Origin: a bacterium
GTDB lineage: Bacteria; Patescibacteriota; Gracilibacteria; UBA4473
Reading direction: 5' to 3'
Length of the DNA: 64,000 nucleotides
Assembly: GCA_009995455.1 (NCBI GenBank)
Contig: JAACPJ010000001.1
Location: 150,991-214,990 of the forward strand
The position numbers were made by a program, and so were the translations under genes. The notes under the pieces were generated by a model. That model ran no database searches, was not told where the DNA came from, and saw only the letters and a program-made list of their open reading frames with translations. Positions 19,768 to 29,980 of the stretch are shown here, one piece after another (the stretch's first letter is position 1; each line of letters starts with the position of its first letter).

Positions 19768-19842
19768 TCCCGAGTAGCTCAGTGGTAGAGCAGTTGGCTG
19801 TTAACCAATTGGTCACTGGTTCGAGTCCAGTCTCGGGAGCCA
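19768..19842 (+). tRNA. tRNA-Asn (anticodon GTT), CCA encoded
   Basis: Cloverleaf read by hand. Acceptor TCCCGAG/CTCGGGA. D arm GCTC-AGTGGTA-GAGC. Anticodon arm GTTGG-CTGTTAA-CCAAT. Variable loop TGGTC. T arm ACTGG-TTCGAGT-CCAGT. Discriminator G, then CCA. Confidence 0.9.
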
Positions 19843-21653
19843 AATTCCTTTAAATGGTAGTTAATACCTTTTTTAGGGTTTCCTGGAATATGAGAAATAT
19901 CTGATTGAGCTAGTATATCAAAAGGTTTTAGCCATTCCATCTCAACACGATCCTTCCAAACTTTAAGGTTCGAACCTAGCGATAGTAGCAAAGCTTTTTT
20001 GGGTTCGAACTCAGCGTCAGCCATAATTGATTTAGCATCGCGCATGACTTGAAGTTTTTGCCAAGCTTGCTCAAACGATTCTTCGTGTTCTTCTTTTAAG
20101 GACTCTATTTCGCCTTGAGTTGTATAAATATCCTCTTCTACTCGAACGATAGTTTCTTCTGCTTCTTTTCTCTTAAGTTCGGATAACTCTGGAAGAAATT
20201 GCACTCTTTTTAAGTTGCTTTGTTCCTCTTCGAGTTTTTGGATTTTCTTTTTTAGTCTGTCTAGGCTGGCTTTGTAGATTTTTTCCTGCTCTAGCCAAAG
20301 CGTATAGAGCTGTCTCCGGAAGACTTCGAATAATCCGTCGGTAATTACGATCTTTGATAGCTCTTTTTCAAGATTTTTAGCTACCGCCTTCAAGGTTACT
20401 GAAGGTGAGGCTTTTCGATTTTTCCCCCAAACGGGCTTACCATTTTCTAACTTGTTAGCGAGAGGCGTAAATCTTTCAATTAAAGAGCACTTAGTCGTTT
20501 CATTAATCTCCTCGCTACATTGAGGGCATTTAGAGGTGTCGTTTTTAGTTTGCCAGCGATGTTGACAGCTAGAGCAAGTGAAACGGTTCTTAGACTCGAA
20601 TAAAAGCCGTGCGGGTCTCGTTTCGCCCTCTTTAGTGATAAATTCAAACTCTCCACTTACTGCAAACCCGGCTAGTAGTTCACCTAAGCCGACGGCTTTT
20701 TCATACTTAGCGTGCTTAAAGCCTAAACGTTGAAGCACCATTTGCGCCTGGTTGAACTCTTCTTCTGAAACCATCGTGGGATGATTCCCCTCAAGCCACA
20801 GCTCCTCTTGATCTGAAGGATCTATACTCTTAAGAAGACCTTGATAGTACTTATTTCTAAAACACTCTCGAACTTGAGAGTCGCTAATCACTCGCTCCCT
20901 TCCGCCGTAGGTGTGAACAATCCCAAGTTCTTTTTTTCGATTATATATCTCTTTAAGAGAATACTGACCGCTTATCAGCATTTCCCACAGTTCACGCATT
21001 TTTTCAAAATTTTCCGAGTGCGCCTCTACGGACTTTTCGCCTTTCTCTGTGCCTACATTCAAATAGCCGACTGGCGCCTTCCCGGTAGTCCCTCCTGCTG
21101 AACGCTTCCGATTCATCCCGGAAGCCGTGTTCTTTCCTCGCTGGTCGTTTTCAAATTTAGCGACGGACATAAAGAGCGAAAGCGTGAACTTATCAGTCGC
21201 AGAGTTCGTAAAAACCTTGTCTACCGTTCTTATTTCTTCGAGGTAAGACTTTTGCGGATTGCTTTGGTACGGATCGAGTAATTGAACGATTGTACCGGTA
21301 TCTTCGGCATTGCGAGAGAGCCGGGAGAGATCAGTACAAATTAGTACATCGAATTTACCTTTCTTGATTTGTTCGATCATATTCAAGAAAGCTTCCCGAT
21401 TAGCTTTCTTCCCGGCGTAGCCTCTGGCAGGAACTTTGGCAGAGCCATCTTCGCGAAATAAATCGACCCCCTCCTCGCCTTTCCAAATTAAACTCCTTTC
21501 TGAATATCCTTCGTTTACTTTTTTCTGGGCTTCAAAGTAGTTTCTAAGATCCTTTTCTTGGCGTTCTAAAGAGTATTTTTGCTTATTTTTACCAGTACTT
21601 TCATCGGAGTCCTTTGAGGACTTCCGCATATAGACTACACACCGAAGCGCCAT
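19779..21653 (-). CDS. large serine recombinase (integrase of the tRNA-Asn island)
   Basis: Resolvase catalytic domain VVYMRKSS...SLERQ...VLICTDLSRLSRN. Recombinase domain. Zn-ribbon FTCSSCQHRWQTKNDTSKCPQCSE. Long coiled coil. The last ~21 codons (GSRDWTRTSDQLVNSQLLYH) are the antisense of the tRNA-Asn 3' half. Confidence 0.9.
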   Translation of the reverse strand: MALRCVVYMRKSSKDSDESTGKNKQKYSLERQEKDLRNYFEAQKKVNEGYSERSLIWKGEEGVDLFREDGSAKVPARGYAGKKANREAFLNMIEQIKKGKFDVLICTDLSRLSRNAEDTGTIVQLLDPYQSNPQKSYLEEIRTVDKVFTNSATDKFTLSLFMSVAKFENDQRGKNTASGMNRKRSAGGTTGKAPVGYLNVGTEKGEKSVEAHSENFEKMRELWEMLISGQYSLKEIYNRKKELGIVHTYGGRERVISDSQVRECFRNKYYQGLLKSIDPSDQEELWLEGNHPTMVSEEEFNQAQMVLQRLGFKHAKYEKAVGLGELLAGFAVSGEFEFITKEGETRPARLLFESKNRFTCSSCQHRWQTKNDTSKCPQCSEEINETTKCSLIERFTPLANKLENGKPVWGKNRKASPSVTLKAVAKNLEKELSKIVITDGLFEVFRRQLYTLWLEQEKIYKASLDRLKKKIQKLEEEQSNLKRVQFLPELSELKRKEAEETIVRVEEDIYTTQGEIESLKEEHEESFEQAWQKLQVMRDAKSIMADAEFEPKKALLLSLGSNLKVWKDRVEMEWLKPFDILAQSDISHIPGNPKKGINYHLKEFGSRDWTRTSDQLVNSQLLYH

Positions 21654-21848: not shown

Positions 21849-22230
21849 GAGACAAATAATCCCAGGGGAGTGTCGCACAAAGTGCGCTCATTTATTTGTC
21901 ACAATCGTCCTTCACTGGGTTATTAAAGAAGGCGGTCGCAGCTACCTGTTTTAAAACGGATGAGTCAGGAAGCACCTCAATTCCGAAATCGATCTTAGAG
22001 GTACTTTATTTTTTTTCAAGTTTTAGGCGTTCGGGCGTAAGTGTTGCAAAAAGCAGTGTTTTAATAGAAAATATTTATGCACTTACCAATTCGATTTACC
22101 TTACGGGCTAATTTTTTAATTAGCGCGAATGGGGAACTAAAGATGGGGCAATTTCCGTCTAACAGTTCTCCGTAAGGGAAATTGGTAGGTGCAACGGTAA
22201 GTTGCCCCTTTTTTGTTTAACCCTGTTAAG

Positions 22231-22542
22231 ATGAAACTAGTTTATCCCGTAAAGTGTCCTACCTGCGAATACGAAGGCGAAAGTCTTCCACGAACACCCT
22301 TTAATTGGTTCTTAGCCGTCGTTCTACTGTTTTTAGGGATTATTCCGGGGGTTATCTATATCGCATTCGTAAAAACCCAGCAGAGCCGATTTAAATGCCC
22401 TCGCTGTAGTTCTCCTAGCTGCTACGCTACCGGCGAACCAAAACCGGCGCCAAAAGTCGAAAGGAAGCTTAACCGAACAGAGATGTTTATAGTCGCGATT
22501 CCGATTATTTTGATCATCTTAATGATCGCTTTAAATCAGTAG
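22231..22542 (+). CDS. small membrane protein with split zinc-ribbon (CPTC...CPRC)
   Basis: 103 aa from the ATG at 22231 (the track begins at a TTG at 22213). CxxC pairs flank the TM helix WFLAVVLLFLGIIPGVIYIAF; a second C-terminal TM is FIVAIPIILIILMIAL. Confidence 0.5.
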   Translation: MKLVYPVKCPTCEYEGESLPRTPFNWFLAVVLLFLGIIPGVIYIAFVKTQQSRFKCPRCSSPSCYATGEPKPAPKVERKLNRTEMFIVAIPIILIILMIALNQ

Positions 22543-22662: not shown

Positions 22663-24612
22663 TTAGCTTTCTACAGACTCGAATAAATCATGAAAGCCAA
22701 TAGTTAAAGATTGTCTCTGTTCACCGCTTAAATCAAAGTCACTTCCAAACCAAAGGTAACAGCCAGTTATAATTGCGATAAATACCAAAAATCCAAACAT
22801 AATTTGAGGCGTTCTTTTTTTGTTATCTAAACGAGTAATGGCATAGATCAAGAATCCAAATATGCATAATGAGCATGCGAAAAAGACAGTAAACGCAACC
22901 GCCATTTTCAAGCTTTCAATTCCTTCGTAAAGCCTGATAGAGCTGGAAGAAAATATTACTAATGCGGAGAATATGGCAAGAACCTCTACGGTTCTCTTTA
23001 AGTTGCTTTTTTGCTCATCTCTTAAAGTTTCTCGAACTTCTTTAATATGATCTTTTTCATCTTCTAAAATTGACAGTTTATGTAGATTTTTCTCAATGTG
23101 TTGCAGATCAGTTTCAACAGTATGTCTAATAAAAGTAGAAAGTGAGAAAACTTTTGGACAAAAAGATAAATTAAATCCCGCAAAACAAGGGTATGTGAAT
23201 CTTCCCATTTCCATATAAAGTTGGCGCGCACGGTTTAATCTTTTTTCAGATTGCCTGATAACTTTTTCTGATTCGGCTAAGGTCTTATTTAAATTCTTTG
23301 CTTTAAGGTAGTAGTACACTCCAAGTTTATACTCTCTAAAGTAAGATGGATGGTTTGAATCGTTCTCATCGGTGTCATAAGTACTTTCGATCTTATCTTC
23401 GAGCTCCTTATTAGTTGAACCTTGGTAGTAGTGATCTATTAAAAAAGAAAGATGAAAATTCTCGATATATAGAATATTTTTCTCTCTAAATAGAAGATCA
23501 TGTTCGTTTTGAGTACTATTTTCGGATCGTATAAACTCAATGATATTCTGTATCAATTTATCTCCTTTGTCTGAATATCCTACAAAATCTTTTATGTATC
23601 TAGCTATGCAAATTGATTTTTCCCAGCCGAAGTCGGCTATGCTTTTTACCGATTCTTTTTTTAGAGCTTCAGACAATGAGGTTTTACTAAGCTCTCTTAA
23701 TAGTTGTTTTTTTGCATCTTTTTTTGAAAGCCCTTCAAAATAAATTTTTTTCTCAAGTTCATCAGCTACTTTATGAAAAAATGTCACTTCATAAAGGTCT
23801 AAACATTTAGGGGTGTTTTTAAGAAGTTCCTGAAAGCTTATCTCATCTTCTCTAGATGAATCAATTTCATGCTTCCATATTAGAAAATCTAAGAATTGTA
23901 TTAATTTTTGAGAGTCTGGAATGCTATTGAAAGTTTTTAACTTTGAACGTGTCTCTCTAAGATTTATTAGGTTTTCATAAAGCCCAATATGCTCTCTAGT
24001 ATCGGTAATAGTATTCATCTCAAAGCTCCATATCTTGATTAAAAAAGCCGTAAGAGCATCATGGCTTAATTCTTTTTTATTCATTCGGCTCTCCAAAATT
24101 TTATTTTTGGAAAAATTTAAAGTGTCATAGCCGTTGTTTGATAATATGCCTTTAATTTTTCTGACACTCCTAAAAACATCCTGAAGAAAGCCTAGGTAAG
24201 ACTTTAAATTATTTAGATCCTCTATATACTCTTGGGTTAATTTTTTCAATGAGTGTATTATTTTACTCGCCTCCTCTTCTGGTGTTATCTCCTCTTGTGA
24301 CTCTTCTTCGCCTTCTTCGCCATAGTCTTTTTCATTTTTAGCTTCGTAATTTTCCGCTACAGCAGCAACTGTTGCGAAAACTTCAATATCTTTCTCTTTA
24401 ATATCAAGTTTCTCCTCTAACTTAAGTAAAACTTTCTCAAATTTTTCTAGCCAAATTGAATTCCAAAATTGACCTTTACACAAAGAAGTAAAAAGTTTTT
24501 CACTTAAGCTAGGCATATCTGCTTTTAATGCTCTAAGAAGAGGGATTTGGTTATGTCCGTCTAAAATACTTTCAAGATTCTCTAGGAACTCATCAGATAT
24601 AGCATCGCTCAT
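22663..24612 (-). CDS. large K/E-rich helical protein with three C-terminal transmembrane helices (candidate toxin/effector)
   Basis: 649 aa. About 530 aa are soluble with no recognised family. TM segments follow: VLAIFSALVIFSSSS, MAVAFTVFFACSLCIFGFLIYAI, IMFGFLVFIAIITGCYLWFG. The start overlaps the upstream gene's stop by 20 nt. AT-rich. Confidence 0.6.
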   Translation of the reverse strand: MSDAISDEFLENLESILDGHNQIPLLRALKADMPSLSEKLFTSLCKGQFWNSIWLEKFEKVLLKLEEKLDIKEKDIEVFATVAAVAENYEAKNEKDYGEEGEEESQEEITPEEEASKIIHSLKKLTQEYIEDLNNLKSYLGFLQDVFRSVRKIKGILSNNGYDTLNFSKNKILESRMNKKELSHDALTAFLIKIWSFEMNTITDTREHIGLYENLINLRETRSKLKTFNSIPDSQKLIQFLDFLIWKHEIDSSREDEISFQELLKNTPKCLDLYEVTFFHKVADELEKKIYFEGLSKKDAKKQLLRELSKTSLSEALKKESVKSIADFGWEKSICIARYIKDFVGYSDKGDKLIQNIIEFIRSENSTQNEHDLLFREKNILYIENFHLSFLIDHYYQGSTNKELEDKIESTYDTDENDSNHPSYFREYKLGVYYYLKAKNLNKTLAESEKVIRQSEKRLNRARQLYMEMGRFTYPCFAGFNLSFCPKVFSLSTFIRHTVETDLQHIEKNLHKLSILEDEKDHIKEVRETLRDEQKSNLKRTVEVLAIFSALVIFSSSSIRLYEGIESLKMAVAFTVFFACSLCIFGFLIYAITRLDNKKRTPQIMFGFLVFIAIITGCYLWFGSDFDLSGEQRQSLTIGFHDLFESVES

Positions 24613-25105
24613 TTAATATCTCGTTAGTATCCATAGCACTTGCTCTTCTATTACTCTTTAGTGCTTCCATAAAAGGCTTTCGCCACGCTTCCCAACGATG
24701 AGAGACCTCTACTAGATAGTCTTCTTTTCTTCTAAGTAATTCGTTTTCATTACCTTTTAAACTAGATATTGCCTCTTTCAATAAAATAGTAACTTCATCA
24801 TCAGTACAACAATCTGGAGCGTTTCCAGAAACTCCAGACTCATGACATTCTTGCATGAAGCCTTTGTTAACCTTTAAGAATCCATATGAATCGTCCTCAA
24901 CTGGACCCTTGGGAAGGGCTACCCATTCATCGAAGGTGCTAAGTAATTTTTTTTCTAGAACACAGGTGAAAAATAAGAGCTTCATTATCTCTACGAAAGT
25001 AAGCTTGGGATAGGCTCTTTTGCCAGTATGTTCTTCAGCAACATCCTGATAACTATTGTTGAGAAGAACTAGAAAAGATTTAAAATAATCCTCCTTAGTT
25101 TGCAT
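24593..25105 (-). CDS. Panacea (DUF4065/SocA/GepA-like) domain protein, candidate antitoxin
   Basis: 170 aa. The core LTFVEIMKLLFFTCVLEKKLLSTFDEWVALPKGPVEDDSY parallels the DUF4065 pattern LT-x-LKLQKLLYF...F-x-AW-x-x-GPV-x-x-x-x-Y. Confidence 0.5.
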   Translation of the reverse strand: MQTKEDYFKSFLVLLNNSYQDVAEEHTGKRAYPKLTFVEIMKLLFFTCVLEKKLLSTFDEWVALPKGPVEDDSYGFLKVNKGFMQECHESGVSGNAPDCCTDDEVTILLKEAISSLKGNENELLRRKEDYLVEVSHRWEAWRKPFMEALKSNRRASAMDTNEILNERCYI

Positions 25106-25177
25106 GGTGATTTTTTTTATAATCTAAATATATACTTTATAATTTATATAGTAAACCGTTCTAAATTTTGACTGTTA

Positions 25178-26308
25178 TTAATGAGCTTCACTCAACCCTA
25201 CCGAGTTTGCCACGTAATCACAGATTGGCTTAAGTAGGGTTGAGAGGTCTTGATCAAAATCTTCCAGCAGAACCTCTGGGATAATTAGATTATCTCTTTC
25301 CACCGGATAAGTGTCATCGAAATCTCGTCCGCCGTTGTAAACTTCATGACCTTTTACGCCTAGGAGGCTTAAGGCGACCACAATAGGGCATTCAATCCCC
25401 AAATCTTTTTGAGTACCTAAATATCGCCTTACATGACCCTTCAGCCTTTCTGGAAGATCGTAAACCGGGAAACGATCTGGGCTTAAGTACGTCGAAGTTG
25501 CGGCTTCAATTATTCCGCTCCTAAATACCTGAACGTAGGTCGCGTGACTTTGGTCTTGCGCCTGACTGTAACTAGCGAAGCCTTCGATGTTTATCTTCCA
25601 AGTACAAGCTCCATTTCCCATCGGCTTAGGGTAATCTCCAGGAAAAGATTCGTGGCTCTTTAGCTCTAAATTCGGCGCGTTTGAAAAAGACTGAAGGGGA
25701 ATTAGATGTATAACAAATTTTGCCTCATTCCCCATTTTTACGGTCGCTTCATCGGCTAAAATTTTTGCAAGTCGGTCGGATCTAAACTGCTGAATTTTAT
25801 TTTCTAGCCCTTCCGAGTCTAAAAACAGTCTGCGGATCTCATAAACGTCCAGCTTTTGCTTCCCTGCCGAAGTCCTCGAATAGAACTTCCCGCTCTTAAG
25901 CATGTGCGGAGATGACCAACTAGCCGGAATTTTTAAAATCAAAACGGTCTTATCATCTATCAAAACTGGTTTTATGTCTATCGCTGGGATTCTCGGATCT
26001 ATTTCCGAAGTTATCAGTTGCTTTAGTCTTAAAACCTCTCGATCGGTGTCGTCCGACTCTATTCCGTGCAACGCGTACCGCGCTTCGCCTTCTGCAGGTT
26101 CCTTATTTTCTGATATACCAAAAATCAAATATCCGCCCGAAGCGTTTGCAAAAGAAGAAACTGCTGCTAAAAACCTTTGCTTTCCTTGATCTGTAGCTTC
26201 AGGTAAGTCGCGCTTGTATTCGAGCGTCTTACTTTCTGACGTCTGATTATCGATTAGGCGCTGGATAGTTCCTTGGTCGATTGAGGCAAACGGTTCGGTT
26301 ATTTCCAT
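25178..26308 (-). CDS. AlbA_2 (Schlafen-like) domain protein with unknown C-terminal domain
   Basis: The N-terminal ESKTLEYKRDLPE...FLAAVSSFANASGGYLIFGISE matches the AlbA_2 pattern E-x-x-x-LEFK...AFANT-x-GG-x-L-x-x-GV. Confidence 0.6.
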   Translation of the reverse strand: MEITEPFASIDQGTIQRLIDNQTSESKTLEYKRDLPEATDQGKQRFLAAVSSFANASGGYLIFGISENKEPAEGEARYALHGIESDDTDREVLRLKQLITSEIDPRIPAIDIKPVLIDDKTVLILKIPASWSSPHMLKSGKFYSRTSAGKQKLDVYEIRRLFLDSEGLENKIQQFRSDRLAKILADEATVKMGNEAKFVIHLIPLQSFSNAPNLELKSHESFPGDYPKPMGNGACTWKINIEGFASYSQAQDQSHATYVQVFRSGIIEAATSTYLSPDRFPVYDLPERLKGHVRRYLGTQKDLGIECPIVVALSLLGVKGHEVYNGGRDFDDTYPVERDNLIIPEVLLEDFDQDLSTLLKPICDYVANSVGLSEAH

Positions 26309-26450
26309 ACGAGTAAACTAGCAGATCCTTCCAACGTTTTCTATCAGCTTGGTTCTTTTCCGGGGAGGGATCTCTTACTAGAAACTCTAAGCCGAGGCTT
26401 TAATACGCGATAACTCCTCATTCCAAGTGCTGTGTAACTTGGTCTTCAAA

Positions 26451-26516
26451 GTCCCCCTGTTAGGCTTATACCCGTTAGATAAAATGGTTCGAACCACGAA
26501 AGTACTAGGGGAGCCA
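26451..26516 (+). repeat. degenerate tRNA-Asn-like remnant / att repeat
   Basis: 26508-26522 GGGGAGCCATTCCTT repeats the tRNA 3' end plus flank GGGAGCCAAATTCCTT (19835-19850). It is preceded by TGGTTCGAACCA (T-arm-like), and TCCCC at 26452 could pair with GGGGA. Too short and mismatched to be functional. Confidence 0.4.
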
Positions 26517-26855
26517 TTCCTTCGTTTCAGCGAAACGAAGCAGGACATCAAACGGTTCACGCAGGTCATAGACCAGCTTTCCGTTTTTTAGTCGTAGGTT
26601 CGAAGTCACTAAAGTGAGTAATTGCTGTTTGCGAGGCTCTGAATCTTCACGAAATAACAGGCCTGCTTTTTGGGCTAGGTCTAGAACGGCTAAACTAGAG
26701 TTTAAGAAGGTTTCATCTTTGCGGCTGGCGTCGGTCAGTTCTTCTTGTAGATCTTGCTCTTCAGACTTAAAGCGAGTGACAAGTTTGTCATACTCATCGG
26801 TTGTAATACACCAATTTCTACACAGACTTAGAAGCTCTAACAGTTGAATAAAACC
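26505..26855 (-). pseudogene. C-terminal remnant of a second large serine recombinase (no start codon, N-terminal ~500 aa missing)
   Basis: Open frame of 117 codons with no Met. It ends ...DSEPRKQQLLTLVTSNLRLKNGKLVYDLREPFDVLLRFAETKEWLP*, which aligns with the intact recombinase tail ...EFEPKKALLLSLGSNLKVWKDRVEMEWLKPFDILAQ...KEFGS. The stop lies at the tRNA-like repeat, as in the intact copy. Confidence 0.65.
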
Positions 26856-26949
26856 ATTAATGCCTCACTTGGTTATAAATGAATAAATAACAGCTAATCG
26901 GTTATGCATTAGAGAAACTCATAAGATTTTATCTGAAAAGAAGCAGTTT

Positions 26950-28082: not shown

Positions 28083-28421
28083 ATGAAAACGCTTGAAGAA
28101 CTAACGCAGCTGCTGATCAAATTTAGAAATGACCGAGATTGGTCTCAATTTCATAATTCCAAAGATCTCGCTTTAGCTCTTTCAATTGAAGCTGCAGAGC
28201 TAAATGAGTTGTTTTTGTGGAAGTCAGAAAAAGAGGCCGAAAATATAAACAAAGTGAGGCTCGGCGAAGAGTTAGCCGATGTTTTGGCTTATGCCTTACT
28301 TTTGGCTGAAAAAAATGATTTAAATATTGAAGAAATTGTGAGAAATAAAATTAATTTGAATGCGGGAAAATACCCCATTCACAAAGCCAAAGGGACTTCT
28401 GAAAAATATACTGAACTATGA
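28083..28421 (+). CDS. MazG-like nucleotide pyrophosphohydrolase (DCTPP1/YpjD-type all-alpha NTP-PPase)
   Basis: 112 aa. FRNDRDWSQFHNSKDLALALSIEAAELNELF and EELADVLAYALLLA carry the EExxE/ExxD metal motifs of this family. Confidence 0.8.
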   Translation: MKTLEELTQLLIKFRNDRDWSQFHNSKDLALALSIEAAELNELFLWKSEKEAENINKVRLGEELADVLAYALLLAEKNDLNIEEIVRNKINLNAGKYPIHKAKGTSEKYTEL

Positions 28422-29980
28422 TAGAAGTAACTACTTTTGATTTTAGGGCTGACACTTTGTTGAAATTAAAAAAATTTCACTACGGAACCGATTGGCCGGC
28501 GGTTTATTTTTTAGAGAACGGCAAGGAAGCTTACATTGGTGAGGCGGTAAATGTGCTTCGTCGTGGTAAGGAGCATTTAAAAAATCCTGATCGGCAGAGG
28601 CTAAAAAAAATTCACATCTTGTCAGACTTTGAGTTTAACAAATCAGCGTCTTTGGATATTGAGTCTTGGTTGATTCAGTACTTATCGGCGGACAACAAAT
28701 TTAAGTTACAAAATGGGAATGGTGGTTTAAAAAATCACAGCTATTTTGATCGTCCAAAATATGAAGCGAAATTTGAGCAATTGTGGGAAGACTTAAGAGT
28801 CGCTGGTTTAGCGCAAAAAACTTTATTAGAACTAAGAAATTCTGACTTGTTTAAATATTCGCCCTACAAAGCTTTAAATGAAGATCAAATAGAGGTAGTG
28901 GGTGTCTTGATGGCAGAAATTAAGGCAAAAAAAATCAGCACGCATTTAGTGCATGGCGGAGCCGGAACCGGTAAAACGATTTTGGCGACGTACTTGATGA
29001 AGCAATTAATTGGGGATCAACATTTGGATTTAAAGATTGCTTTAGTGGTTCCAATGACGTCTTTACGAAAAACGCTAAGGCAAGTTTTTAGAAGTATTGA
29101 AGGTTTAAATTCCAATATGATACTTGGTCCTTCCGATGTATTTAAAGCGGATTACGATTTGTTAATTGTGGATGAAGCGCATCGACTTAAAAAAAGAAGA
29201 AATATTTCTAACTACGGTTCTTTTGATATTAATAATAAAAAATTAGGACTTGATAATAACGGAACGGAGCTTGATTGGATTATGCGAAATTCTAAGCATC
29301 AAATATTTTTTTATGATGAGCATCAATCGGTTAAACCATCTGATATAGGACCAAATAAGTTTAAAGAGTTAGATGCCATTGAGCATAATCTGGCACAACA
29401 AATGCGCGTTAAGGGTGGGGATCAATACATTAATTTCATCCATAGTTTATTTTCTTCACATCCAACCTTATATAAAAATCACGAAGACTATGATGTCCGA
29501 TTCTGTGAAAAGCTCGAACCGATGATTGGTTTAATTAAAGAGAAAGAAAAAGAGCATTCATTGGCTCGTATGGTGGCGGGTTATGCTTGGGATTGGGCGT
29601 CGAAAAAAGATCCAAACGCTCATGACATAGAGTTAGACGGTTTAAAATTAAAATGGAATAGTTGCATAGAAGGCTGGGTGAATTCGAAAAACGCAATAAA
29701 TGAAATTGGGTGTATTCATACGGTTCAGGGATATGACTTAAATTATGTGGGAGTCATTATTGGACCGGAACTTTCTTATGATTTTGAAACGAAAGAATTT
29801 ATTTTTAAACGAAAGCTTTATAAGGACAAAAACGGTCATGTAGGCGTTCGAGATGAGGAAGAGCTAAAAAAATATATCATCAATATTTATAAAACACTTC
29901 TAACCAGAGGAATCCGTGGAACTTATGTGTACGTCGTTGATAAAAATTTAAGAGAATATTTGAGGGATTACTTTTCATAG
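28418..29980 (+). CDS. GIY-YIG nuclease domain fused to a DUF2075 (Schlafen group-III-type SF1 helicase/ATPase) domain
   Basis: N-terminus VYFLENGKEAYIGEAVNVLRRGKEH...SLDIESW is GIY-YIG-like. Walker A GGAGTGKT and Walker B LLIVDEAHRL are present. C-terminal GCIHTVQGYDLNYVGVIIG is typical of DUF2075. The ATGA overlap with the MazG-like gene indicates translational coupling. Confidence 0.7.
   Translation: MIEVTTFDFRADTLLKLKKFHYGTDWPAVYFLENGKEAYIGEAVNVLRRGKEHLKNPDRQRLKKIHILSDFEFNKSASLDIESWLIQYLSADNKFKLQNGNGGLKNHSYFDRPKYEAKFEQLWEDLRVAGLAQKTLLELRNSDLFKYSPYKALNEDQIEVVGVLMAEIKAKKISTHLVHGGAGTGKTILATYLMKQLIGDQHLDLKIALVVPMTSLRKTLRQVFRSIEGLNSNMILGPSDVFKADYDLLIVDEAHRLKKRRNISNYGSFDINNKKLGLDNNGTELDWIMRNSKHQIFFYDEHQSVKPSDIGPNKFKELDAIEHNLAQQMRVKGGDQYINFIHSLFSSHPTLYKNHEDYDVRFCEKLEPMIGLIKEKEKEHSLARMVAGYAWDWASKKDPNAHDIELDGLKLKWNSCIEGWVNSKNAINEIGCIHTVQGYDLNYVGVIIGPELSYDFETKEFIFKRKLYKDKNGHVGVRDEEELKKYIINIYKTLLTRGIRGTYVYVVDKNLREYLRDYFS

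Follow-up and report, generated by a model that had tools for sequence, protein, structure and literature searches.

A divergent Panacea protein and its coupled three-helix membrane partner extend the predicted PanAT cluster T15 to an uncultivated low-GC lineage

In a 64,000-nucleotide (nt) stretch of contig JAACPJ010000001.1 from a bacterium of the Gracilibacteria, hereafter called the window, we analysed two overlapping genes that encode a 170-amino-acid (aa) protein related to Panacea (DUF4065) and a 649-aa membrane protein, together with a neighbouring gene for a 376-aa AlbA_2 protein. Judged by homology, the pair belongs to a predicted and uncharacterised cluster of PanAT toxin-antitoxin systems, T15, as a divergent member that stems from a new lineage, and its large protein is homologous to the predicted toxins (PanT) of this cluster. 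On balance, we regard the two genes as a translationally coupled, toxin-antitoxin-like cassette of the PanAT type that probably works by the mechanism proposed below. In PanAT systems, a single antitoxin domain is combined with many unrelated toxins, and they are the textbook case of such an arrangement. About ten such pairs have been tested so far, and their membrane toxins are described as small. What is new here is the definition of the family with its conserved core of three transmembrane (TM) helices, an alternative partner for this core, and natural loss-of-function alleles of the large gene.

DUF4065 received the name 'Panacea' in a study that predicted 1,268 PanAT loci with 88 toxin clusters (Kurata et al., 2022; PMC8832971). 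Nine pairs were validated experimentally there, in addition to one from earlier work, and the validated PanTs include three membrane-depolarising toxins with TM helices. For Dyadobacter koreensis, Dataset S1 of that study lists the PanA WP_090338882.1 and the predicted PanT WP_090338880.1 (pT14/T15, order A|T, gap -1, LabReport 'notest'). By exact-sequence look-up, these two are the proteins of our locus L012, the small one (178 aa) being WP_090338882.1 and the large one (650 aa, L012:4001-5953) WP_090338880.1, and the latter matches the hidden Markov model (HMM) of our large-protein family at E 7e-144. The original prediction had put the module forward as a candidate for an undescribed one, and this could not be upheld, since the D. 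koreensis pair already stands in Dataset S1 as a predicted T15 member.

Like the listed T15 pairs, the window pair has a stand-alone ('noNTD') Panacea protein encoded upstream, the same gene order, and genes that abut or overlap. Homology between the large proteins was assessed by a non-circular profile-profile comparison, in which alignment A2, holding only sequences of the candidate phyla radiation (CPR) type, was set against alignment A7, holding only Bacteroidota sequences. As given by hhalign, the match had a probability of 99.1% and E 4.9e-19 over 369 columns, corresponding to window residues 237-624, so that the homology with T15 proteins such as WP_090338880.1 takes in the three-TM module and roughly one half of the soluble domain. 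The first ~230 aa of the window protein are lineage-specific and did not align with the Bacteroidota members, and identity is only ~16-22%. The two also differ in that the listed T15 pairs are all from Bacteroidetes, whereas the window pair comes from a low-GC metagenome-assembled genome (MAG), and in that the window PanA scores below the Pfam threshold for Panacea; T15 itself is a computational prediction. Cluster T15 is now defined more fully, with ~150 representative clusters, a 500-aa soluble domain that has no fold relative, and a three-TM core, and its range extends past the Bacteroidota to an uncultivated low-GC lineage.

In architecture, the large protein can be set beside the membrane-targeting PanTs that have been validated (E. 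coli T3, Bartonella apis T12, Helicobacter sp. T4, and B. choladocola PanT D11), from whose clusters T15 is set apart by the FlaGs clustering in PMC8832971. They share a stand-alone PanA partner and C-terminal TM helices; in the Helicobacter T4 toxin, these helices come after a coiled-coil N-terminal part, and this toxin depolarises the membrane without pore formation. However, many predicted TM-bearing toxins are described as small peptides (PMC8832971), whereas the window protein has 649 residues with a conserved soluble domain of 500 aa. A partner of this size had been expected to be unusual for a PanAT pair, and it is indeed out of line with the validated membrane PanTs. As side information from the same Dataset S1, the largest predicted cluster, T1, spans many phyla with the PanA gene first and small overlaps, and its laboratory results comprise one 'Toxic' and two 'not Toxic' entries.

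The three open reading frames (ORFs) of 649, 170, and 376 aa were confirmed as co-directional genes on the minus strand (Table 1), the peptides quoted from them were present, and the 20-nt overlap of the first two was exact. They are real genes rather than chance ORFs, because homologues are found elsewhere and the exact 170-aa and 649-aa proteins occur on 30-37 public contigs. NCBI labels the exact proteins of the pair 'hypothetical protein [bacterium]', with locus tags GW756_00875 and GW756_00880. The two genes are conserved as neighbours far beyond the window. In the window lineage (L003, L004), in locus L001 from an NCBI MAG, and in locus L002 from Logan, the small gene lies directly upstream with an identical 20-nt overlap, and this overlap recurs in L023 and L037. 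The more distant Panacea relatives P0009 and P0010 likewise stand before unannotated genes, of 820 aa and 626 aa, whose products share the three-TM ending.

Scanning one genome per species for the large protein yielded 22 loci; the profile was built from a 10-sequence sub-cluster alignment, as the full alignment of 77 sequences was too divergent. Most loci belonged to Bacteroidota (Dyadobacter, Pedobacter, Draconibacterium, Hymenobacter, Adhaeribacter, Pontibacter, Rufibacter, Sphingobacterium, Aureispira, and Chitinophagaceae), and Ignavibacteriaceae and Chlorobiota were likewise represented. In 21 loci, a co-oriented gene of the small family directly preceded the large gene, and for 20 of them the gap was between -26 and +12 nt. 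The 21st, L031, has a 645-nt gap and a truncated large gene, and the locus without an upstream small gene, L032, gave a weak, short match only. Altogether, a Panacea gene was found directly upstream and on the same strand in the window lineage, L001, L002, L006, L007, and 20 genome loci, and over 24 independent loci (Bacteroidota, Ignavibacteria, and CPR-like) the gap ranged from -26 to +74 nt. Across the loci surveyed, no third gene was conserved with the pair. The two proteins co-diverge over the 24 loci (Mantel r 0.87, reached by 0 of 5000 permutations), which is compatible with a PanA-PanT complex and also expected from co-inheritance. The PanAT-type pairing proposed originally is therefore borne out by this survey: homologues of the two genes are clearly linked across genomes, order and spacing are those of PanAT pairs, and the large protein is a conserved, tightly coupled partner of Panacea.

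The Panacea assignment of the 170-aa protein had to be established through its family. Against Pfam, its sole match was PF13274 (SocA_Panacea), with E 0.044 and 15.1 bits over profile positions 20-112 of 113, and by itself the protein falls below the gathering score of 25.7 bits. Absence of a significant DUF4065 match had been named beforehand as an outcome that would speak against the idea, and the single sequence taken alone gives just this outcome, which the family evidence overturned. Two relatives were found in 5.8 billion proteins and a third was read from a locus, and all three match PF13274 only. A profile of three sequences of the family reached P0007 (E 1e-35) and P0010 (E 8e-9), both of which carry a precomputed PF13274 annotation; P0010 is named 'uncharacterized phage-associated protein'. 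In all seven members of the family, PF13274 was the only Pfam match, with a best E of 1.6e-5. The seven-member HMM in turn matched the upstream neighbours of the Bacteroidota large-protein homologues at E 1e-30 to 1e-42. Ten partner proteins from Bacteroidota and the P0010 group were scanned; PF13274 was the sole match in each of them, and five exceeded the gathering score (29-34 bits, profile coverage 1-113 of 113). One of the partners, WP_090338882.1, is named 'type II toxin-antitoxin system antitoxin SocA domain-containing protein' by NCBI. As the family profile reaches proteins that pass the Pfam threshold, the 170-aa protein is, on sequence grounds, a divergent stand-alone Panacea (PanA) protein. 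It consists of the Panacea domain (about residues 37-142) and an N-terminal helix, without a helix-turn-helix or other added domain.

The 649-aa protein gave no credible match in Pfam, PADLOC, NCBIfam, or PHROGs, and a profile search with its family found no match among PDB sequences. A word-indexed search returned three relatives. With a three-sequence profile, an exhaustive HMM search against 1.84 billion representatives then gave 151 proteins at E <= 1e-3, of which 76 were 550-800 aa long. The full-length proteins form one family, 75 of 77 long sequences being linked at >=25% identity over >=350 aa, and nearly all relatives have exactly three predicted C-terminal TM helices. Scattered sub-threshold Pfam matches among the 71 short or mid-length and 77 long relatives (DUF2157, DUF2207_C, MFS, and others) were rejected as noise from hydrophobic composition, and the same noise probably explains the Conserved Domain Database labels given to T15 in Dataset S1 (Nramp, MFS, DUF5518, E1_enzyme) and the NCBI name 'DUF4149'. 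A literature search found no paper characterising the family.

AlphaFold2, run with the 77-sequence alignment, gave a confident model of the 649-aa protein consisting of helices only (predicted local distance difference test, pLDDT, 81.6; predicted template modelling score, pTM, 0.72), in agreement with the earlier description of an all-helical, K/E-rich protein (K+E = 20%). A single long helix, residues 499-562, runs into TM1; after it come two more helices, 568-594 and 602-622, and the protein closes with a short acidic tail. The three terminal hydrophobic helices noted before were recovered as Kyte-Doolittle segments 541-559, 571-589, and 604-622, and the charge distribution fits the positive-inside rule with an N-in, C-out topology. 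In Foldseek against the PDB, the model matched generic alpha-solenoids only (best E 0.28). The soluble part had been described as falling outside known families, and neither database, PDB, nor Foldseek searches gave anything specific for it. The most conserved block of the family is TM1-TM2, with E543 at 90%, F548 at 100%, A550 at 95%, F554 at 99%, Q560 at 75%, and F585 at 94%. Within the soluble domain, D/E198, K247, K341, N385, S389, F425, and K429 are family-specific conserved positions, and the polar residues K247, N385, S389, and K429 are near-invariant.

The three-TM module also occurs with another partner. It recurs in proteins of 170-240 aa, and genuine short forms of 214-233 aa are encoded at L036 (L036:2337-3702, upstream gene included), L037 (L037:2367-3645, likewise), and also L038-L040. 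These have an N-terminus of their own and a coiled coil, and they share a homologous stalk and three-TM module with the large proteins (HMM E 3e-27 and 2e-18 for L036 and L037). A tightly coupled gene of ~217 aa (L036:2337-2996, L037:2367-3020) precedes them, separated by 4 nt or overlapping by 20 nt, and its product is not Panacea and matches no Pfam, NCBIfam, or PHROG family. The short proteins of L036 and L037 thus differ from the window protein in having no large soluble domain and an upstream partner unrelated to Panacea. We consider the ~217-aa gene a candidate for a new antitoxin-like partner of the membrane module. In keeping a coupled upstream gene while the partner changes, the module behaves like a toxin domain in a partner-swapping network. 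A widespread stand-alone form of the module, as first suggested by matches in the short class, was not accepted: several of these are fragments of long genes, at a contig edge or split, and only a subset is genuine.

These observations bear on where toxicity would reside. It might lie in the N-terminal soluble domain, for example as an unrecognised enzyme, with the three TM helices serving as an anchor only. The near-invariant polar residues of the soluble domain (with D/E198 and K341 added to the four above) would suit such an arrangement. However, the TM1-TM2 block is conserved best of all, the soluble domain has a helical, solenoid-like fold without any enzyme-like match, and in the short proteins the stalk and three-TM module occur alone, still with a coupled upstream partner. 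We therefore regard a toxic soluble domain as quite improbable.

Loss-of-function alleles of the large gene were found repeatedly. Within the 90%-identity cluster of the window's 649-aa protein, which represents one species-level population, there are at least three independently disrupted alleles (proteins P0166/P0168, P0170/P0167, and P0001). In the first, the reading frame stops cleanly after residue 332, and an ORF further downstream covers residues 353-649; in the second, the clean stop follows residue 418, and the downstream ORF covers residues 432-649; the third (L003:7354-9302) has a 1-nt deletion in a TTT run near residue 425. panA is intact beside the disrupted alleles, and the intact 170-aa protein was present on 37 contigs as against 30 for the intact 649-aa protein. 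Further independent disruptions were seen in L001 (frameshift near residue 440), in L034/35 (split gene), and in L031 (truncated). A common breakpoint, as would point to a programmed frameshift or phase variation, was looked for and rejected, as the breaks lie at 332, 418, ~425, ~440, and ~488, and two are nonsense codons. Recurrent loss of the large gene with retention of the small one is consistent with the pattern of a costly toxin. From these repeated alleles, the conservation of the TM module, and its partner swapping, we infer that the 649-aa protein is toxic.

The same evidence has to be set against a non-toxic function, in which the large protein would be a membrane-anchored scaffold, sensor, or transporter-like protein, the Panacea protein its cofactor or chaperone, and the likeness to toxin-antitoxin systems architectural only. 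The large size with a conserved soluble domain would fit this view, as would the lack of similarity to known toxins in the Pfam, PADLOC, NCBIfam, PHROGs, Foldseek, and PDB searches, and some PanTs predicted by FlaGs are not toxic. Yet such a function would leave the recurrent disruption of the large gene beside an intact panA, the exchange of partners by the three-TM module, the patchy spread across phyla with a foreign GC content, and the gene order and overlap of validated PanAT pairs to be accounted for otherwise, and we consider it unlikely.

On the preferred reading, that of a PanAT-type cassette, the 649-aa protein would be anchored N-in in the cytoplasmic membrane by its three C-terminal TM helices, with the 500-aa helical domain in the cytoplasm. 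The stalk and three-TM module would be the toxic part and would depolarise or permeabilise the cytoplasmic membrane, as validated TM-bearing PanTs do, probably after oligomerising through the stalk. The Panacea protein would hold the large protein inactive by direct binding; we draw here on the NetFlax study, in which a stand-alone Panacea domain directly neutralises a TM toxin through a segment just before the TM region (PMC10440598). The conserved soluble domain of ~500 aa would have a regulatory or sensing role and gate the TM module, and the physiological role is probably either abortive-infection-type defence or stabilisation of the cassette. Taken as a whole, that is, membrane anchoring, a toxic TM module, inhibition by Panacea, and a gating soluble domain, we hold this mechanism to be somewhat better than an even bet. 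If the large protein is a membrane effector controlled by PanA, it would offer a tractable model for the gating of a minimal membrane toxin by a big regulatory domain, and for what Panacea senses.

Several points weigh against this reading. At 600-680 aa, of which a conserved soluble domain takes up 500, the large proteins would be atypical toxins for a type II toxin-antitoxin system, and the near-invariant K247, N385, S389, and K429 could reflect a biochemical activity of the soluble domain itself. The 170-aa PanA has no DNA-binding domain, which leaves autoregulation unexplained. T15 comprises 13 entries in Dataset S1, all from Bacteroidetes and all marked 'notest', and among the predicted PanTs of other clusters there are some that proved 'not Toxic' in E. 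coli (PMC8832971). The loss-of-function alleles could alternatively be ordinary neutral decay of a dispensable gene. Neither protein of the pair matched PADLOC-DB v2 at E up to 0.1, and the pair was not found on sequenced plasmids, phages, or IMG/VR contigs; two metagenome scans returned no pair and also missed the window's own Joint Genome Institute (JGI) contigs, and are thus weak negatives. In other genomes, the flanks of the pair mix restriction-modification and mobile-element genes with housekeeping genes and do not form consistent defence islands. Structure does not lend support to the Panacea fold either: with the AlphaFold2 model of the 170-aa protein (pLDDT 75.5), Foldseek against the PDB and BFVD found nothing at E <1, and a profile search with its family found no match in PDB sequences. 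We take these last searches as uninformative rather than negative, since there appears to be no solved Panacea structure.

The flanking genes are also relevant to a second possibility, that of a phage-defence sensor-effector, in which a phage cue would be sensed by the soluble domain, the Panacea protein, or both, and the three-TM module activated by a complex that stays together. It departs from the toxin-antitoxin reading on two points, the identity of the sensing component and whether PanA acts as an inhibitor only. The NetFlax authors propose that Panacea is primarily a sensor and favour such a sensory role (PMC10440598), and a conserved 500-aa domain calls for a functional explanation. 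Moreover, the small, variable island around the window pair holds a gene of the prokaryotic Schlafen (pSlfn) type and a MazG-like/DUF2075/Nhi-like pair. Elsewhere, L006 adjoins a type I restriction-modification methylase and an AAA_13 protein, and other flanks carry restriction-modification genes (three of Eco57I type, MmeI, Type ISP, and HsdM) or mobile-element genes (DnaG/Toprim, DUF3987, and IS110). Against it, many flanks are housekeeping genes, and PADLOC matches neither protein of the pair. We regard this possibility as real but rather doubtful. Still more tentative is its fuller form, a membrane-anchored sensor-effector in which the ~500-aa domain and Panacea would detect a phage or stress cue and open a mobile, depolarising three-TM module that is also used with the ~217-aa partner. 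If this fuller form were true, the family would be a widespread, uncharacterised abortive-infection family reaching CPR-like bacteria, in which few defence systems are known. Judged by its genomic contexts, the cassette is autonomous and mobile, without strict confinement to defence islands.

The neighbouring AlbA_2 gene had been proposed as the sensor or regulator of a three-gene system. Its AlbA_2-type N-terminus was confirmed: residues 25-153 of the 376-aa protein match PF04326 (SLFN_AlbA_2) at E 3.2e-19 over practically the whole profile (positions 1-117 of 118). Residues 25-32, ESKTLEYK, form the motif E25-x4-E30-x-K32, and E-x4-(E/D)-x-K is the catalytic signature of the tRNases of the pSlfn group, which are single-gene phage-defence proteins with variable C-terminal sensor domains (Nat Microbiol 2026, PMC13056530). 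The 376-aa protein resembles these defence nucleases in its N-terminal full-length PF04326 domain, its motif, and a variable C-terminal domain at the sensor position, and differs from them in that its C-terminal ~220 aa match no family searched. As pSlfn proteins hold a phage-sensing domain there, this part is perhaps a sensor domain of an undescribed kind. The NCBI annotation of the protein says no more than 'ATP-binding protein'.

In favour of a three-gene system, the AlbA_2 gene is co-directional with panA and separated from it by only 72 nt. However, in a phmmer search of the locus ORFs, the 376-aa protein had no homologue near the pair at any of the 25 other loci carrying it, including the closest relatives L001 and L002, where unrelated genes lie upstream (a divergent 507-aa gene and an NTP transferase gene, respectively). 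The GC content of the AlbA_2 gene, 44.2%, also differs from that of the pair (37.0% for panA and 32.6% for panT), the protein has the catalytic motif of single-gene pSlfn nucleases, and the spacer contains a promoter-like site. This site, a sigma-70-like consensus TTTACT-17-TATATT on the minus strand, is a pattern match only, and it may be the pair's own promoter. A role of the AlbA_2 protein in the cassette is thus highly improbable. Since the gene occurs with the pair only in the window lineage and differs in GC, our best reading is that it is an independent, candidate defence gene of pSlfn type beside the PanAT cassette. For annotation, the 649-aa and 170-aa proteins can accordingly be labelled as a putative PanT(T15)/PanA pair, with the AlbA_2 gene entered separately as a pSlfn-type candidate.

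Table 1. Positions of the genes and parts of genes discussed, in window coordinates
Feature	Coordinates	Strand	Basis
putative panT gene, 649-aa membrane protein, candidate toxin/effector	22663..24612	-	homologous to predicted PanT cluster T15
panA-like gene, 170-aa stand-alone divergent Panacea (DUF4065/SocA-like) protein	24593..25105	-	PF13274 via family
376-aa prokaryotic Schlafen (AlbA_2) protein, independent neighbour gene	25178..26308	-	PF04326 and catalytic motif
soluble all-helical N-terminal domain of the 649-aa protein, ~residues 1-498	23119..24612	-	AlphaFold2 model, conservation
stalk helix and three-TM module of the 649-aa protein, residues 499-624	22741..23118	-	AlphaFold2 model, hydropathy, conservation
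overlap of panA 3' end and panT start, 20 nt, putative translational coupling	24593..24612	-	same overlap in relatives
AT-rich 72-nt spacer 5' of panA	25106..25177	-	sigma-70-like promoter match at 25155-25127
large serine recombinase, 624 aa (Resolvase, Recombinase, zinc ribbon)	19779-21653	-	Pfam domains
tRNA-Asn gene	19768-19842	+	

The pair lies beside a serine recombinase gene and tRNA-Asn. GC content over 23000-25000, that is, over panA and panT, is 31-35%; the window as a whole has 41.5%, and the recombinase and AlbA_2 genes next to the pair have 43-44%. As its GC is below that of both the window and its island neighbours, the pair seems to be of different origin from the latter. The recombinase gene ends inside the tRNA-Asn gene of the opposite strand, its last ~20 codons being antisense to the tRNA, and this suggests that the element integrated at tRNA-Asn and that the junction shaped the C-terminus of the recombinase. 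No direct repeats, as expected for a serine recombinase, were found at the island ends. At the far edge, in the gene-poor region 26309-26949, the translation of a stretch at ~26541-26639 (minus strand) resembles recombinase residues 550-581 (39% identical over 33 aa; E 0.002, from a very small search space), and the stretch may be a remnant of a second, decayed element. The adjoining DNA ends in a tRNA-like manner, ...GGTTCGAACC...GGGGAGCCA; a tRNA remnant at this place was supported by neither Rfam nor ARAGORN.

Further plus-strand genes were observed in or near the island. A 112-aa MazG-like pyrophosphohydrolase gene (28083-28421) overlaps by 4 nt a 520-aa gene (28418-29980) for a DUF2075/Schlafen-group-3-helicase protein, which has a GIY-YIG-like N-terminal region and PADLOC matches to Nhi/AbiO (E ~5e-14) and PDC-S14. 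These two genes likely represent a second defence-type pair in the same island. The AlbA_2 (Schlafen nuclease-like) protein and the Schlafen-type helicase are thereby encoded as separate genes 2 kb apart. Finally, a 109-aa ORF (22213-22542) converges on the 3' end of the 649-aa gene, and its product has two hydrophobic segments and weakly matches a LITAF-like zinc ribbon (E 0.003).

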